Shown here: one piece after another, positions 7,214 to 62,600 of the stretch | Layout of the letters: every line of letters begins with the position of its first letter | Numbering within the stretch: position 1 is the first letter of the stretch | Sequence record: MF327009 | DNA: 64,000 nt | Reading direction: 5' to 3' (one strand) | Source of the DNA: Shigella phage Sf25 | The notes under the pieces: generated by a model | Told to the model about the DNA's origin: nothing | Seen by the model: only the letters and a program-made list of their open reading frames with translations | The model's database searches: none | Program-made: the position numbers and the translations under genes

Positions 7214-7414
7214 ATGGTACAAAAATTAATGGCACTTGTTAATGCCATCAAAGGTAATAAAAAACGTATAGCTTTTACTATTTCTGCTATGGTAGGAATT
7301 TTACTCTGGAACTTTATTTTATCACCTGTTGCAATTGCACATGGTATTAATATTCCAGTAGTTACTCTTGATACATTCGTAGATTTAGCATTTGCTTTAG
7401 TTGGGTTAATTTAA
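7214..7414 (+). CDS. small hydrophobic protein (66 aa), plus strand
   Basis: AAGGAGGA Shine-Dalgarno 6-8 nt before the ATG at 7214; two hydrophobic segments; fills the gap between gene 61 stop and the next minus gene. Confidence 0.4.
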   Translation: MVQKLMALVNAIKGNKKRIAFTISAMVGILLWNFILSPVAIAHGINIPVVTLDTFVDLAFALVGLI

Positions 7415-8439
7415 ATCTTAGCATATTTAGATAACCTCATTTTAGCCATCAACCCCTGGGCAATATTATTTTTCATATATTCCATAATTTGTTCAGGGGT
7501 TGCACCTTCCTTTCTAATCATATCATTAACATCTTTTGATTTCCAGGGAGATTTATCCCAAAACATAACTCTTTCTCCTGCATCAACTAATTTAGTCATT
7601 CGTTTGATAGTGTCAGGGTGACGAGGTTCATTATCTAAAACCCACACTCGTCTATCTTTAAATGGAACAACTTCTAGGTCTAATTGACCACCCGTAATAG
7701 CTATACCATTTTCAATAAAAAGTGAATCTATAGGTCCTTCTAGAACATATACATCACCATCTTTAACTCGTTCAACACCGTAAATTTTTGTTGCCTCAGG
7801 ATAAGCTTTGATGGTGATATACTTTTGTGGAGCATCTTTCTTTAATGCACGACCTTGAAAAGACTCAGCTTTTCCGTTAGCATTATAAATTGGAATAACA
7901 AGACGAGGCTCAGAAATTTCCTTTTTGTATGTTCCCGGTGCTATGCTATTAACTAATTTAGGCCATTCGGTTGTAAACCAAAGATATTTCCATTTATCCT
8001 TTGGAATACAACGAGCTTTTACATATTTTATAATTGGATGGTCTTCCGCCAGTTTATCTAATCTAACGCATGACGGAAGAGATTTAATTATTTTCTTCTC
8101 AGGCTGTTTAGGAAGTTCTTTAGGTTTTTCTACTGGACGACTTTTACCTTTTTCTTTTCTTATTTCAAAGATATACTCACGATATAAATCAGGTTCAAAC
8201 TCCTTTAAATATATTCCGATTGGTGCATGATAGTTACAGTTATAACAATGAATATTTCCTTCATTATTATCACCATAATACCATCCACGGGCTTTATTTT
8301 GGTCGGTTTTTGAATCTCCACAAACAGGGCATCTAAACCGCAACTTAAAGGTTGAACTATTATTTACTTGTGTAAATTTAGGTAAATGAGCTAATGCACG
8401 GTATGCAAACTCATTATCAATCCAAGGTATTGATGACAT
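7411..8439 (-). CDS. 61: DNA primase gp61
   Basis: 342 aa; zinc ribbon CPVCGDSK...CYNC; length and position match T4 gp61. Confidence 0.85.
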   Translation of the reverse strand: MSSIPWIDNEFAYRALAHLPKFTQVNNSSTFKLRFRCPVCGDSKTDQNKARGWYYGDNNEGNIHCYNCNYHAPIGIYLKEFEPDLYREYIFEIRKEKGKSRPVEKPKELPKQPEKKIIKSLPSCVRLDKLAEDHPIIKYVKARCIPKDKWKYLWFTTEWPKLVNSIAPGTYKKEISEPRLVIPIYNANGKAESFQGRALKKDAPQKYITIKAYPEATKIYGVERVKDGDVYVLEGPIDSLFIENGIAITGGQLDLEVVPFKDRRVWVLDNEPRHPDTIKRMTKLVDAGERVMFWDKSPWKSKDVNDMIRKEGATPEQIMEYMKNNIAQGLMAKMRLSKYAKI

Positions 8440-8441
8440 TT

Positions 8442-8607
8442 TTACTCTTCTTTTTCTTTAGATTCCTCTTTCTTCTTTTTAGGAATCTGTTCAGGACCTT
8501 TATTTACTACAGCACCTGACGTTGTTCCAGTAGAGATATTTTCAGGATTACCACCTGAATCTCCAGCGACCATATCTTCTTTAATAAATTCTTTATATGT
8601 TTTCATA
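8442..8607 (-). CDS. small protein with internal-protein-like N-terminal leader (about 55 aa)
   Basis: Below the ORF-track cutoff; begins MKTYKEFIKE, like the capsid-targeting leader of T4 internal proteins; Lys/Glu-rich tail. Confidence 0.35.
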
Positions 8608-53035: not shown

Positions 53036-53509
53036 TTATTTGAACGATTTAACGTACTGAATAGAACCTTTACTATTTACAAAGGCAATTTTACCATTTT
53101 TATTATACATTGTAGCAGTACGTTGATAGCCATAAGTTTGTTTACCAGATTGATAACCAACTAATGCAAAATTATCTTCACCCATTTTATTCTGTTTAGC
53201 GCGAATGCGTTCATGACCATGTGCCATAAGAACCTTAGCATCACCAGTTGCAATGGATCGACGAGTTTTTTCATCTTCAACTGTATTAACAAAGTCGTCA
53301 AATGAATCAAATTTAGCATGAGATTTATTATACAATTTTCCATCTACTGCATAATTATATCCCTGTACATCCATCTCAACTTCTGTACCATCATCCAATA
53401 CAGCAGTAATTTTCTGTCCTTTTTTAAATTTCAAAAGATCAGTAAAAGATTCAGCAATAATTTGAGAATTAATAGCTGCTTCAGTGATAAATTCTTGATA
53501 TGTTTTCAT
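53036..53509 (-). CDS. internal protein (IPII/IPIII family) with capsid-targeting leader
   Basis: N-terminus MKTYQEFITEAA (leader cleaved by the prohead protease in T4 IPs); position next to e. Confidence 0.6.
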   Translation of the reverse strand: MKTYQEFITEAAINSQIIAESFTDLLKFKKGQKITAVLDDGTEVEMDVQGYNYAVDGKLYNKSHAKFDSFDDFVNTVEDEKTRRSIATGDAKVLMAHGHERIRAKQNKMGEDNFALVGYQSGKQTYGYQRTATMYNKNGKIAFVNSKGSIQYVKSFK

Positions 53510-53525
53510 GTGTATCCTTTAATTT

Positions 53526-53843
53526 TTATTCTTTAGGGAAGTTTTTAGAATATGCATCATAAAGCTTATTTCCAATACGGCGGAAAACTCTAGCCGCAAA
53601 ACGATTTTCTGGGTTTTTAATCATGATTTGCATCATATAAGTACCCGCGTCAGAAAGAGCTTCTTCATAGTACCCGTTAATTTCTTTAAGAGTCCTACGT
53701 TTACCGCCAGGACCATCAACAGTGATTTTCCATTTACCTGTAGAAGTGCGACTTGGCGGCTCAACTTGTTCAATCCAGATATAACCGCCTTCTACACGTT
53801 GTCCTGCAGCAGATTCTGCAATAAATTCTTGATAGGTTTTCAT
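53526..53843 (-). CDS. internal protein (IPII/IPIII family) with capsid-targeting leader
   Basis: N-terminus MKTYQEFIAESAA; basic. Confidence 0.6.
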   Translation of the reverse strand: MKTYQEFIAESAAGQRVEGGYIWIEQVEPPSRTSTGKWKITVDGPGGKRRTLKEINGYYEEALSDAGTYMMQIMIKNPENRFAARVFRRIGNKLYDAYSKNFPKE

Positions 53844-53931: not shown

Positions 53932-54462
<531 letters not shown>

Positions 54463-57631: not shown

Positions 57632-57958
57632 TTATTTCATATTATTGAAATATTCTTCTGCGATTTCGTCGTTATCATGGTAAACTTTAGAAGACAGTTT
57701 AACATAACCTTCTGCCGTGAACATATTAATCACAACCTTTACAGTATACCACTGACCATCTTCATTACCCATTACTGCGTAAGTTTCAAACATCGGATGA
57801 TCAGGACCGATAACTTTAATATCATTCACTGTACGACCAAAATCTTCTGAAACACATTTCATAAAGAAGTTGAACAGTTCGCCGTAATTATCCATTTCAT
57901 TCTCCAAGTTGTTTTCTGTATCAGTAGTTGATAGTTGTATAGTACCATGGAAGGACAA
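57632..57958 (-). CDS. hypothetical acidic protein (108 aa)
   Basis: Minus-strand ORF with early promoter upstream. Confidence 0.4.
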   Translation of the reverse strand: MSFHGTIQLSTTDTENNLENEMDNYGELFNFFMKCVSEDFGRTVNDIKVIGPDHPMFETYAVMGNEDGQWYTVKVVINMFTAEGYVKLSSKVYHDNDEIAEEYFNNMK

Positions 57959-57969
57959 GGATGTAAACC
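57937..57969 (-). promoter_or_regulatory. T4-type early promoter
   Basis: gtaaac at 57963-57968 on plus strand plus the conserved -10 block. Confidence 0.5.
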
Positions 57970-58099
57970 GTTTTGTGAAAAAATTTTTTAAAAAGTTTTA
58001 GGGAATTCTAGGGCAGGGAGGGGCAATTAAAAGATAGGATAATATATTATAAAGGGTATAAACTAAATGATGCCTAGAGAGGCCCGGAAAGGCCTAGAT

Positions 58100-58131
58100 A
58101 CCAAAAAGCCCCAACCTTTCGGCTGGGGCTA
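58100..58131 (-). terminator. rho-independent terminator
   Basis: agcccca-N-tggggct hairpin followed by a U-run on minus; near-identical copy at 58660-58691. Confidence 0.55.
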
Positions 58132-58137
58132 AGAATG

Positions 58138-58611
58138 TTATTTGATTTGTTTAGCAGACCAAATGCGGTCTTTAATAATTTTTTGGATGTCTTCAACATA
58201 TTCAAGAGAGTGAACATGTGGGTTATCTTTGAAACTATAAGCACGAGCTAGCTTTTGGCCTTCAGTTTTGATTACTAAAAGCTCTTTAAGGATAGCTTCA
58301 TATTTGGAGATAATTCCTTTAACGATATTTTTCTCTTGTGTGACTTTAGGATCTGCTTTAGGAGCAGGTTTATCTGAAGCCTTTGCAAAAGCAGCTCCAG
58401 TAGCAACTAAACTTTTCCAAGCCATACTAACTGCATTCCCTGTAAATCCTTCGGCTTTCATATCACGAGCAAATTGGAATCGTGATTCATCGGAAGCATC
58501 TTTATAGGAATATTTACCCGCGGCAATGGCTGCTTTTGCGACAGCTTGAATTTCGGTGCTAGATGCTTCATTTAGCACCGCTTCATTTAAAAATTGAGCA
58601 TATGATTTCAT
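58138..58611 (-). CDS. internal-protein-like capsid-packaged protein with CTS leader
   Basis: N-terminus MKSYAQFLNEAVLNE (CTS-like); preceded by late promoter TATAAATA and RBS; Ala/Lys-rich. Confidence 0.5.
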   Translation of the reverse strand: MKSYAQFLNEAVLNEASSTEIQAVAKAAIAAGKYSYKDASDESRFQFARDMKAEGFTGNAVSMAWKSLVATGAAFAKASDKPAPKADPKVTQEKNIVKGIISKYEAILKELLVIKTEGQKLARAYSFKDNPHVHSLEYVEDIQKIIKDRIWSAKQIK

Positions 58612-58651
58612 CTTATTTCCTGTTTTAATTCGTGGTTTTAATATACTACTA

Positions 58652-58659
58652 TATTTATA
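58652..58659 (-). promoter_or_regulatory. T4 late promoter TATAAATA
   Basis: plus-strand tatttata immediately after the terminator on minus, about 40 nt upstream of the ATG at 58611. Confidence 0.5.
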
Positions 58660-58691
58660 CCAAAAAGCCCCAACCTTTCGGTCGGGGCTAA
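58660..58691 (-). terminator. rho-independent terminator closing the tRNA/stable-RNA transcription unit
   Basis: agcccca-N-cggggct hairpin plus U-run on minus. Confidence 0.55.
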
Positions 58692-58694
58692 GCC

Positions 58695-58916
58695 TTGCGG
58701 CAACCTTGTCGGGGTTCCACCTGCTAAGGCAAGTGTTTGTACGAAACGCCGGGATTCGAACCCGGTTATCAAGCAGTTGACGCTACTCAATATTTTTAAA
58801 AGGCCATATCTCGACCATATCCGAACGTTCCGTCAAAAACGCTACTCGGCTTACGGCAAAGATATTTCCTCGAATCGATAATTCGGTGCGCCGTTTCTGC
58901 TGTGCGACCCGGTTTC
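58695..58916 (-). ncRNA. possible small stable RNA with tRNA-like T-arm (cf. T4 species 1/2 RNAs)
   Basis: Non-coding stretch distal to the tRNA cluster containing GGTTCGAATCC (T-loop-like) with flanking stem, but no full cloverleaf. Confidence 0.3.
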
Positions 58917-59267
58917 TTAATATTCTTTTAAAGCATCAATTTGTTCACGGCGTTTACGCCATAAATCAATTGCTTCATAAGCAGATTCAGCATTTCGAAT
59001 TAGCCGACATTTATGTAAAGACTTATGATTTTGATATTGTGTAGATAACGGAATTTTATCTAAAAGGTCTTTACGTTCAAAATATTCGTAACCATCTAAA
59101 CCAAATGAACGATTTTTGAGAAATTGCCAATGACCAAATTCGTTTTCGACATAAACATAATCTGCATGCTGATAAAGCAAATTAATTACACGTTCAGAAA
59201 TAACAGTATCATTATGATTAAAATAGAATGTTAAATCATGAACTACTAAGTAAACATTGCCTTTCAT
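58917..59267 (-). CDS. hypothetical protein (about 117 aa)
   Basis: Start taken at MKGNVYLVV (GAGGAAAAT RBS) because the longer ORF would overlap tRNA-Arg. Confidence 0.4.
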   Translation of the reverse strand: MKGNVYLVVHDLTFYFNHNDTVISERVINLLYQHADYVYVENEFGHWQFLKNRSFGLDGYEYFERKDLLDKIPLSTQYQNHKSLHKCRLIRNAESAYEAIDLWRKRREQIDALKEY

Positions 59268-59285
59268 ATTTTCCTCACTTATAAT

Positions 59286-59362
<77 letters not shown>

Positions 59363-59366
59363 TATT

Positions 59367-59441
59367 TGGCGGACATGCATGGATTCGAACCATGGACCAA
59401 TTGATTAACAGTCAACTGCTCTACCACTGAGCTACACATCC
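59367..59441 (-). tRNA. tRNA-Asn (anticodon GUU)
   Basis: Anticodon loop CUGUUAA (same as E. coli tRNA-Asn), T-arm GGTTCGAATCC, encoded CCA. Confidence 0.65.
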
Positions 59442-59445
59442 AAAT

Positions 59446-59532
59446 TGGTGGGGAGTGATGGAGTCGAACCACCCGAGTCGCAATGACAATGAATTTACAG
59501 TCCACACCGCTACCTCTACGGGATAACTCCCC
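59446..59532 (-). tRNA. tRNA-Tyr (anticodon GUA), class II with long variable arm
   Basis: Anticodon loop CUGUAAA and 13-nt variable arm, overall close to the E. coli tRNA-Tyr layout; encoded CCA. Confidence 0.6.
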
Positions 59533-59544
59533 TAATTCATAATT

Positions 59545-59619
59545 TGGTGGCCCTGGGTGGAATTGAACCACCATCTGGCGATTATGAGTCGCTTGCTTGA
59601 ACCTTCCAGCTACAGGGCC
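59545..59619 (-). tRNA. tRNA with CAU anticodon (Ile-lysidine type as in T4, or Met)
   Basis: Anticodon loop CUCAUAA; acceptor GGCCCTG/CAGGGCC; encoded CCA. Confidence 0.6.
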
Positions 59620-59620
59620 T

Positions 59621-59696
59621 TGGTGCTGATTGACGGAATCGAACCGCCGACCTTCTCATTACAAGTGAGTTGCTCTACCTACTGAGCTAAATCAGC
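59621..59696 (-). tRNA. tRNA-Thr (anticodon UGU)
   Basis: Anticodon loop CUUGUAA; T-arm GGTTCGATTCC; encoded CCA. Confidence 0.7.
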
Positions 59697-59701
59697 AAAA
59701 C

Positions 59702-59791
59702 TGGCGGAGGCGATAGGATTTGAACCTATGAGTCGCCGGAGCGACTGCCGGTTTTCAAGACCGGTGCATTAAACCACTCTGCCACGCCTCC
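59702..59791 (-). tRNA. tRNA-Ser (anticodon UGA), class II
   Basis: Anticodon loop CUUGAAA, long variable arm, encoded CCA. Confidence 0.7.
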
Positions 59792-59793
59792 AG

Positions 59794-59867
59794 TCTCCAT
59801 ACAAGGATTTGAACCTTGGACCTCCTGATCCCAAATCAGGCGCTCTACCAAACTGAGCTACACGGAG
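59794..59867 (-). tRNA. tRNA-Pro (anticodon UGG), CCA not encoded
   Basis: Anticodon loop UUUGGGA; abuts tRNA-Ser with a 2-nt spacer (dimeric precursor arrangement known in T4). Confidence 0.65.
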
Positions 59868-59877
59868 TAAATTAAAT

Positions 59878-59951
<74 letters not shown>

Positions 59952-59956
59952 AAATT

Positions 59957-60042
59957 TGGTGCGAGAAGTGGGACTCGAACCCACAAGGAAATCATTCCGC
60001 AGCATTTTAAGTGCTGTGCCAACTTGGCTAATTCCCAATTAT
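59957..60042 (-). pseudogene. chimeric tRNA remnant: 3' two-thirds of tRNA-Leu(UAA) fused to a 5' segment that looks like the start of tRNA-Gln
   Basis: Intact Leu anticodon arm (CUUAAAA), long variable arm, T-arm and acceptor 3' strand TTCTCGC-A-CCA, but the 5' side reads TTGGGAATTAGCCAAGTTGGCA, which cannot pair with the acceptor 3' strand and resembles a tRNA-Gln 5' end. Confidence 0.5.
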
Positions 60043-60123
60043 TAACAAAGGCTCTCAAGCAAGAACCCTTGATGATAGAGGGTATTAATCAGTGCGGTAT
60101 GAGTTAATAATAACAAATAATTC

Positions 60124-61354: not shown

Positions 61355-61562
61355 TTAAACCAATTAAAAATGCTACTACAAGTGAAAATACATTTTCTGC
61401 TGTAGTTAATAATCCGCATATAAATCCAACAAACATTGAAAAACTAAAAGCGGAAGCAGAAATTGCAATAGCAACATTTCGAATTAATTCACAACGTTTC
61501 ATTTTATTCTCCTCAGTAGTTGATAGGGTAATAGTATCACTACTAAAACCCCGTGTAAACAA
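61317..61562 (-). CDS. small membrane protein (81 aa)
   Basis: Hydrophobic C-terminal half. Confidence 0.4.
   Translation of the reverse strand: MFTRGFSSDTITLSTTEENKMKRCELIRNVAIAISASAFSFSMFVGFICGLLTTAENVFSLVVAFLIGLIAIVMDKISKGE
61528..61562 (-). promoter_or_regulatory. T4-type early promoter
   Basis: gtaaac at 61556-61561 on plus strand; near-duplicate of the promoter at 61860-61892. Confidence 0.45.
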
Positions 61563-61572
61563 CTTTGTGAAA

Positions 61573-61830
61573 TTATTTTAAATCTTCTAATCGTTTCTTC
61601 ATCTTAGAACCATTTTTAGCGATTTCTCCTGCGTCAGAGCATAATGCTAAAAGTGCTTTAACTTTAGTTTGGTCTCCTTTAAAAGACGAAGGATCGACTG
61701 CAGCAGCAAGTTCTTTAATACGAGAGAAAAGACGCTCAGCTTCGGCTAAAGCCATTCCAAGCTTTACTTCCATACCATGAGAAGATTCAGTGATAATAGT
61801 TTCTGTAGCAAACTCTTTATAAGTTTTCAT
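61573..61830 (-). CDS. internal-protein-like protein with CTS leader (ipI-locus position)
   Basis: N-terminus MKTYKEFATETIITES; located just upstream of 57B where T4 has ipI. Confidence 0.5.
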   Translation of the reverse strand: MKTYKEFATETIITESSHGMEVKLGMALAEAERLFSRIKELAAAVDPSSFKGDQTKVKALLALCSDAGEIAKNGSKMKKRLEDLK

Positions 61831-61859
61831 TTTATTTTTCCTAATTAATTTTGATGAGG

Positions 61860-61892
61860 TAATAGTATCACTACCTCATCAGTGTGTAAACA
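61860..61892 (-). promoter_or_regulatory. T4-type early promoter
   Basis: gtaaac at 61886-61891 on plus strand. Confidence 0.45.
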
Positions 61893-61903
61893 ACTTTGTG
61901 AAA

Positions 61904-62600
<697 letters not shown>

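Follow-up and report, generated by a model that had tools for sequence, protein, structure and literature searches.

Internal proteins of T-even phages carry a short N-terminal leader, and the first 10 residues of IPIII are sufficient for packaging (PMC9026906). Within the T4 leader, residues 4 and 7 act in targeting and residues 8 and 10 in processing, and the prohead protease gp21 cuts after L/I-x-E (PMC9026906). Outside this leader, the internal proteins are not homologous to each other (PMC12373910; bioRxiv 10.1101/2025.11.20.689424). Three of them, Ip1, Ip2, and Ip3, block GmrSD enzymes, each a different one (PMC12373910), and Bas37_0260 blocks McrBC (bioRxiv 10.1101/2025.11.20.689424). 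Since 2025, every T-even internal protein of known role (Ip1, Ip2, Ip3, and Bas37_0260) is an inhibitor of a specific type IV restriction system. A second described system concerns the way in which accessory genes are bounded: in PeSL (promoter-early stem-loop) cassettes, two copies lie around an accessory ORF, compared to a single copy at the empty site (PMC2839356).

Here, we analyzed a locus of Shigella phage Sf25 (sequence record MF327009) in light of both systems. The whole stretch of DNA that was analyzed, hereafter the window, is 64,000 nt long and is a Tequatrovirus (T4-like) segment that is read against the direction of transcription. On its minus strand, positions 58138..58611 hold an ORF of 157 aa, which belongs to the RB32ORF133c family (PHROG 2280) and is a candidate internal head protein. 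We propose, with a probability of roughly 0.6, that this ORF and its flanks form an accessory, self-contained late module encoding an internal, injected head protein that is likely an inhibitor of a nuclease-type defence. The candidate is widespread (~400-plus phages, many of which were isolated for therapy), lacks annotation, and is missing from the model phages T4 and T2, and it is for these reasons that we consider it a lead to another pair of defence and counter-defence, as well as to host-range differences of near-identical phages.

Anatomy of a predicted late cassette downstream of the tRNA cluster

Reading along the minus strand, gene 1, 57A, and 57B are followed by the internal protein gene of the classical ipI locus (61573-61830, minus strand; its product differs from the cassette protein), four small ORFs, nine tRNA genes (59286-60038, minus strand), one ORF, and rnaC, after which come the cassette and the orthologue of e.8 (57632-57895, minus strand), which has its own early promoter. 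Beyond e.8 lie e.6 to e.3, nudE, e, and two further internal protein genes in the locus next to e (53526-53843 and 53036-53509, both on the minus strand). The homologue of rnaC (species 1 stable RNA; 58740..58878, minus strand) is the last gene of the tRNA/stable-RNA unit and, over its 139 nt, is 97.8% identical to T4 rnaC and 99.3% identical to the annotated rnaC of Kha5h. We found no match to T4 rnaD in the window, and the place of this gene between rnaC and tRNA-Arg (58879-59285) is taken by an ORF of unknown function (58917-59315, PHROG 3355). segB is absent among the window's tRNA genes, and neither ARAGORN nor Rfam finds a tRNA-Gln at 60039-60120; Kha5h, T4, and RB32 have one beside tRNA-Leu. 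The window's tRNA-Leu scores weakly (32 bits).

The cassette is bounded by a 36-nt direct repeat (58098-58133 and 58657-58692), the two copies of which are 559 nt apart and identical at 34 of 36 positions. A pattern search of the 64 kb that allowed up to three mismatches returned exactly two copies, compared to 0.00 expected from shuffles. Read on the minus strand, each copy has the sequence CTTAGCCCC(GA/AG)CCGAAAGGTTGGGGCTTTTTGGTAT and forms a 10-bp stem, seven of whose pairs are G-C, closed by a GAAA loop and followed by a TTTTTGGTAT tail; each was scored as a strong intrinsic terminator on this strand. Folding of each 51-nt segment gave -21.6 kcal/mol (z ~ -3.2 and -3.6). The stems of the copies differ only in the 5' arm, where one has GA and the other AG, a change that trades an A-U for a G-U pair and vice versa and leaves both stems intact. 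The upstream copy (58657..58692, minus strand), with its stem-loop at 58666-58689 and a U-tract, is the terminator of the tRNA/rnaC unit; this hairpin is also the terminator after rnaC in T4 and an annotated terminator in Kha5h. The downstream copy (58098..58133, minus strand; stem-loop 58107-58130) is an intrinsic terminator that closes the cassette. No further copies of the terminator were found in the window, in 24.6 kb of Bas43, or outside the locus in IMG/VR contigs, and BLAST reported a 'second place' in some genomes. An Rfam scan of the cassette returned no RNA family.

Directly behind the upstream hairpin, we found an exact late promoter core, TATAAATA (58652..58659, minus strand), of which the first three nucleotides (TAT) are the last three of the upstream repeat. 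The RBS, AGGAA (58617..58621, minus strand), is 5 nt before the ATG. Of 14 orthologous loci (three genera), 11 have the exact promoter core and the other three have TAATAAATA-like variants, and the spacer to the ATG varies among these 14 loci. The same order of terminator, TATAAATA, RBS, and leader-bearing ORF is found in these 11 loci, one of which belongs to a Klebsiella Jiaodavirus with an unrelated hairpin sequence. By number alone, the window shows no enrichment of the motif (8 found versus 10.9 expected), and the weight that we give to it therefore comes from where it lies and from its conservation at orthologous loci, not from its count. With TATAAATA at -10 and conserved in orthologous loci, the cassette has the sequence hallmarks of a T4 late transcription unit. 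All eight exact sites in the window are on the minus strand, and two of them stand in tandem (54440-54447 and 54453-54460) just upstream of the lysozyme gene e.

Together, these features predict that the cassette gene is expressed only late and is insulated on both sides. Early and middle transcripts of the tRNA cluster would stop at the first hairpin and, because the U-tract of this terminator runs directly into TATAAATA, transcription of the gene would be left to the late, gp55-dependent polymerase alone. At the second hairpin copy, late transcription would halt before e.8, for which a sigma-70-type early promoter (57939..57967, minus strand) would make expression independent of the cassette. 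An initial annotation of this DNA, made from its sequence, had described near-identical terminators, a late promoter, an RBS, and an ORF bearing a capsid targeting sequence, and this description is correct in every particular. Its view of a self-contained late cassette is supported by the order of the elements in the sequence (terminator, late promoter, RBS, ORF, and terminator). Two GenBank records already describe this anatomy: that of RB32 has the gene as 'flanked by 34 bp imperfect direct repeat', and that of fPS-90 marks two terminators and annotates the TATAAATA site as a 'predicted late promoter'.

Presence, absence, and probable exchange of the module in T4-like phages

We found that the cassette, which lies at the 3' end of the tRNA/rnaC unit, is an insertion/deletion module of 559 bp, since T4, T2, and PST carry a single terminator copy at the exact junction. 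In T4, the e.8 flank is joined to rnaC via one copy of the hairpin, and the alignment breaks exactly at the repeat. Using the cassette as a query, both of its ends map to one 52-nt site in T2, RB9, Sf24, and several T4 isolates. The gene itself is absent from T4, T2, RB9, and PST, and is therefore dispensable and variable among close relatives; the initial annotation had anticipated such variability, and the lack of the module in T4, T2, and PST bears it out. The whole unit is present in about 400 of the 510 records that match the cassette query, and overall in ~400-470 sequenced T4-like phages.

Four states of the locus were observed: empty, gene A (the 157-aa gene) alone, A with B (fPS-90), and B alone (Shfl2). 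Among these states, every breakpoint maps to the terminator or to the TTTTTGGTAT tail. In fPS-90, gene A is followed by the same hairpin, gene B, a different hairpin, and then the common TTTTTGGTATCTAGG flank. Gene B (e.g. fPS-90 g135c) encodes 187 aa, starts with MKTYAEFLTE/A (the slash marks the position after L/I-x-E), and is found in 165 phage records, with or without gene A. It is located at 856-1419 of the fPS-90 locus (L006) and at 1201-1767 of the Shfl2 locus (L007), and it is preceded by AATAAATA, which is one mismatch from the late promoter consensus. Homology between A and B was considered and is unsupported: BLASTP finds the 11-residue leader only, though both genes are in PHROG 2280.

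In addition, the two hairpin copies appear to have exchanged sequence. Specifically, the GACC and AGCC hairpin variants are in swapped positions in contig L010, and both hairpin copies of one Mosigvirus have the same variant, CCCCTTCC. These observations point to exchange between the copies and not to independent convergence. We infer from the observed junctions that gain and loss of the module would occur by homologous recombination between the duplicated terminators. For T4 and T2, loss is more parsimonious than repeated gain, given that other genera have orthologues at this site. It could be argued that strong GAAA-tetraloop terminators are alike only by convergence and have no part in gene gain and loss, and the downstream terminator is indeed a different sequence in L014, L016, L017, and KpV477. 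We consider this explanation very improbable, as the identity reaches past the stem (into CTT at its 5' edge and TTTTTGGTAT at its 3' edge), the empty site of T4 and T2 amounts to exactly one copy, and genomes with A only, A and B, or B only differ by hairpin-bounded units; the swapped variants of L010 and the shared variant of the Mosigvirus argue against it as well. A separate contig of 121,442 nt (L015) carries, at 1380-2090, a gene A and a CCCCTTCC upstream hairpin of the Mosigvirus type together with a downstream hairpin and a gene B of the Tequatrovirus type, and looks like a mosaic from exchange at the hairpins.

The 157-aa protein and its predicted capsid targeting leader

By its pattern of substitutions, the ORF at 58138..58611 is a real, constrained gene. 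We found a dN/dS of 0.05-0.09 against seven orthologues (dS 0.27 to ~1.9), which indicates strong purifying selection and, together with the conservation of the ORF across genera, rules out that it is not a gene. A tblastn search returned 511 phage records with the gene, one copy each. Most of these have ~93-99% identity and are largely Escherichia, Shigella, and Yersinia phages, and a second group, including Mosigvirus Shf125875, has ~70-80% identity; in Klebsiella/Raoultella phages, including Jiaodavirus KpV477, only residues 4-72 are matched. The Mosigvirus and Jiaodavirus orthologues occupy the identical site, directly after the tRNA cluster. Among 1.84 billion representative proteins, an HMM search gave only 13 hits, most of which are full-length or fragmentary relatives, the remainder being a few weak partial or chimeric matches. 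The orthologues RB32ORF133c, fPS-90 g136c, and bas43_0241 (PHROG 2280) are 95-99% identical to the window gene, and their records assign no function and leave the targeting leader unmentioned; in every sampled GenBank record, the product is a 'hypothetical protein'. The KpV477 orthologue (L009) has an in-frame TAA after residue 78 (~2029-2031), which may reflect recent pseudogene formation, a nonsense mutation, or an error of sequencing; the gene is intact (177 aa) in its close relative KP01.

The product is a basic protein of ~17 kDa (pI 9.4) with 21 Lys and 4 Arg. Pfam, NCBIfam, and PHROGs hold no functional family for it, the only assignment being PHROG 2280 of 'unknown function'. The AlphaFold2 model, which has a mean pLDDT of only 73.5 and is based on an alignment of 13 sequences, is all-alpha and consists of a three-helix N-terminal domain (18-71), a Pro/Lys/Ala-rich linker, and a long helical hairpin (88-154). 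Fold searches with this model gave generic helical hairpins only, with no informative match and no target-specific fold, and a profile search against PDB sequences gave designer helical proteins only; neither the fold nor the family searches suggest a target, and the structure gives no clue to function.

The N-terminus of the protein, MKSYAQFLNE (codons 1-10, 58582..58611, minus strand), is a predicted capsid targeting sequence that ends in the L-x-E prohead protease motif. The initial annotation had noted a capsid-targeting-type N-terminus, and these residues match the leader motif. Compared to the MKTYQEFIAE/A of T4 IPII and IPIII, MKSYAQFLNE/A keeps Y4, F7, L8, and E10, which are all four of the experimentally mapped positions and include both targeting positions. 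When the leader was aligned with those of T4 IPI, IPII, IPIII, and others, M1 and F7 were invariant, and K2, E6, and E10 were at least 90% conserved; residue 6 of the 157-aa protein is Q, and it is E in more than 90% of the aligned leaders. Codons 11-15 (AVLNE, 58567..58581, minus strand) are a 15-nt tandem duplication of the leader end and create a second L-x-E site, so that two cleavage sites for the prohead protease are predicted (L8-N9-E10/A and the duplicated L13-N14-E15/A). The duplication is missing in Mosigvirus-type alleles, and indels cluster directly after the leader. Relatives with as little as ~30% identity keep an N-terminal x-x-F/Y-x-x-F-L-x-E (MLKFNEFLAE, MINFSDFLNE, and MKSFSSFLNE), and in one allele (L013) the spacing of L/I-x-E is disrupted, the sequence being FLMTE.

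The motif MK[ST]Y.[EQ]F[LIVA].E has only five occurrences in the six-frame translation of the window, each of them at an ORF start. Among the four other ORFs with the motif, two are in PHROG families of internal virion or head proteins, and a third starts with exactly the leader of IPII/IPIII. The fifth occurrence is a 54-aa ORF (8442-8606, minus strand; MKTYKEFIKE/D) in early-gene surroundings, flanked by the primase gene (7411-8439) and a 208-aa ORF, at a position that we take to be that of T4 61.1. It falls in PHROG families of unknown function, including PHROG 1823, and is either an overlooked small packaged peptide or a sign that the motif is less specific than assumed. Given this early-context ORF, the Q at residue 6, and the FLMTE of L013, we consider the leader of the 157-aa protein to be good sequence evidence for functional targeting and cleavage, but not proof of packaging.

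Possible roles of the protein and likeness to described systems

The 157-aa protein has in common with the T-even internal proteins (T4 IPI, IPII, and IPIII; Ip4-Ip9 of RB phages; Bas37_0260) a 10-residue leader ending in L-x-E, and like them it is small, basic, dispensable, and found in some close relatives and not in others. It is without similarity to other internal proteins outside the leader, as is the case for the known internal proteins among themselves. Specifically, the comparison with known internal proteins that the initial annotation had called for, which here covered T4 IPI, IPII, and IPIII and the three other internal proteins of the window, brought out nothing in common beyond a leader of 10-11 residues. 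Homology to the window's Ip4-like protein, which is of equal length (157 aa), was rejected by comparison. The gene lies in neither of the described ip loci (57B-trna.4 and next to e), a difference that concerns location only and not mechanism. The initial annotation had assigned it to the hypervariable internal-protein locus near the tRNA genes; the gene is indeed in a variable locus beside the tRNA cluster, but the classical ipI locus lies beyond the cluster, at a distance of ~3 kb. The two genes also differ in the 110 nt upstream of them, where the 157-aa gene has only the exact late promoter behind a terminator, whereas the window's ipI-locus gene has a sigma-70-type promoter. The sources examined do not describe the rnaC/e.8 site as an ip locus, no sampled record names the protein as internal, and a literature search by accession and ORF names and by Ip numbering returned nothing on the protein family. 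The reading of this gene as an internal protein gene appears in none of the records and papers that were searched.

We propose that the gene probably encodes a protein that is packed into the head and injected with the DNA, and we infer both the packaging and the anti-defence role. MKSYAQFLNE would carry the protein into the scaffolding core of the prohead, gp21 would cut after E10 and/or E15, and the mature protein of ~16 kDa would remain in the DNA-filled head and be injected with the genome. By analogy only, the mature protein would then disarm a nuclease-type defence of the host at DNA entry; such a defence is the likeliest target because Ip1-3 inhibit GmrSD enzymes and Bas37_0260 inhibits McrBC. 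The leader of gene B and the Lys-rich, basic composition of the protein support the internal-protein reading. The very low dN/dS of the gene counts against it, since anti-defence genes often diverge rapidly.

This strong purifying selection, as well as the fixed site across genera, would suit a late accessory protein with a housekeeping-like role that is not packaged (e.g. a helper of assembly, lysis, or superinfection), in which case the leader would be vestigial or coincidental. The Q at residue 6 and the presence of the same motif in the 54-aa early-context ORF are consistent with such a protein, and our literature search found no virion proteomics covering the family. However, relatives that have diverged to ~30% identity elsewhere still keep the leader, all four of its mapped positions are retained, the adjacent variable gene B has the same leader, and the predicted late-only expression coincides with prohead building, which together make an unpackaged protein unlikely. 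Alternatively, the protein might be packaged and have a structural or DNA-related role in the head (charge neutralisation, or an aid to packaging or ejection) instead of inhibiting a defence. Lysines of internal proteins are reported to contact DNA phosphates (PMC3012670), and a Lys-rich, basic, helical protein with a low dN/dS and no target-specific match in fold searches would fit this role. We regard it as rather improbable, given that T4, T2, and PST do without the gene and that all four internal proteins of known function inhibit type IV restriction. The initial annotation had also named a reading that would count against packaging, namely that the protein is a conserved non-packaged T4 product; T4 has no copy of it.

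Extending the reading of the 157-aa protein as an injected inhibitor, we tentatively raise a broader scheme that we consider possible but doubtful: the rnaC/e.8 junction might be a third internal-protein locus, in which A and B are injected inhibitors of as-yet-unmatched host defences with folds unrelated to those of Ip1-3, and in which the junction of terminator and late promoter is the late-gene counterpart of the PeSL linker.

By its sequence, the cassette resembles PeSL but fails to show the early promoter that defines such cassettes. As in PeSL cassettes (PMC2839356; PMC4122927), an accessory ORF lies between two stem-loop copies, the empty site of a relative holds one copy, and the arrangement is consistent with transcriptional insulation; the repeat also contains a stem-loop terminator. 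A further hallmark of PeSL cassettes is their excision as mini-circles, through recombination of the two copies. The repeated element of PeSL holds a strong sigma-70-like early promoter; in contrast, no sigma-70-type site was found within the 36-nt copies or beside them on the strand of the gene, the repeat is 36 nt long compared to ~100 for PeSL, and the adjacent promoter is the late TATAAATA, of which only 3 nt are inside the repeat. The module suggests that duplication of a terminator alone, without an early promoter, can bound exchangeable genes. The window also holds a true PeSL pair: 69-nt direct repeats (61520-61588 and 61851-61919, 86% identical) flank the ipI-locus gene at 61573-61830, and each of them contains GTTTAC-17-TACTAT and a stem-loop over the -10 box. 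A related PeSL copy precedes e.8 (57921-57987).
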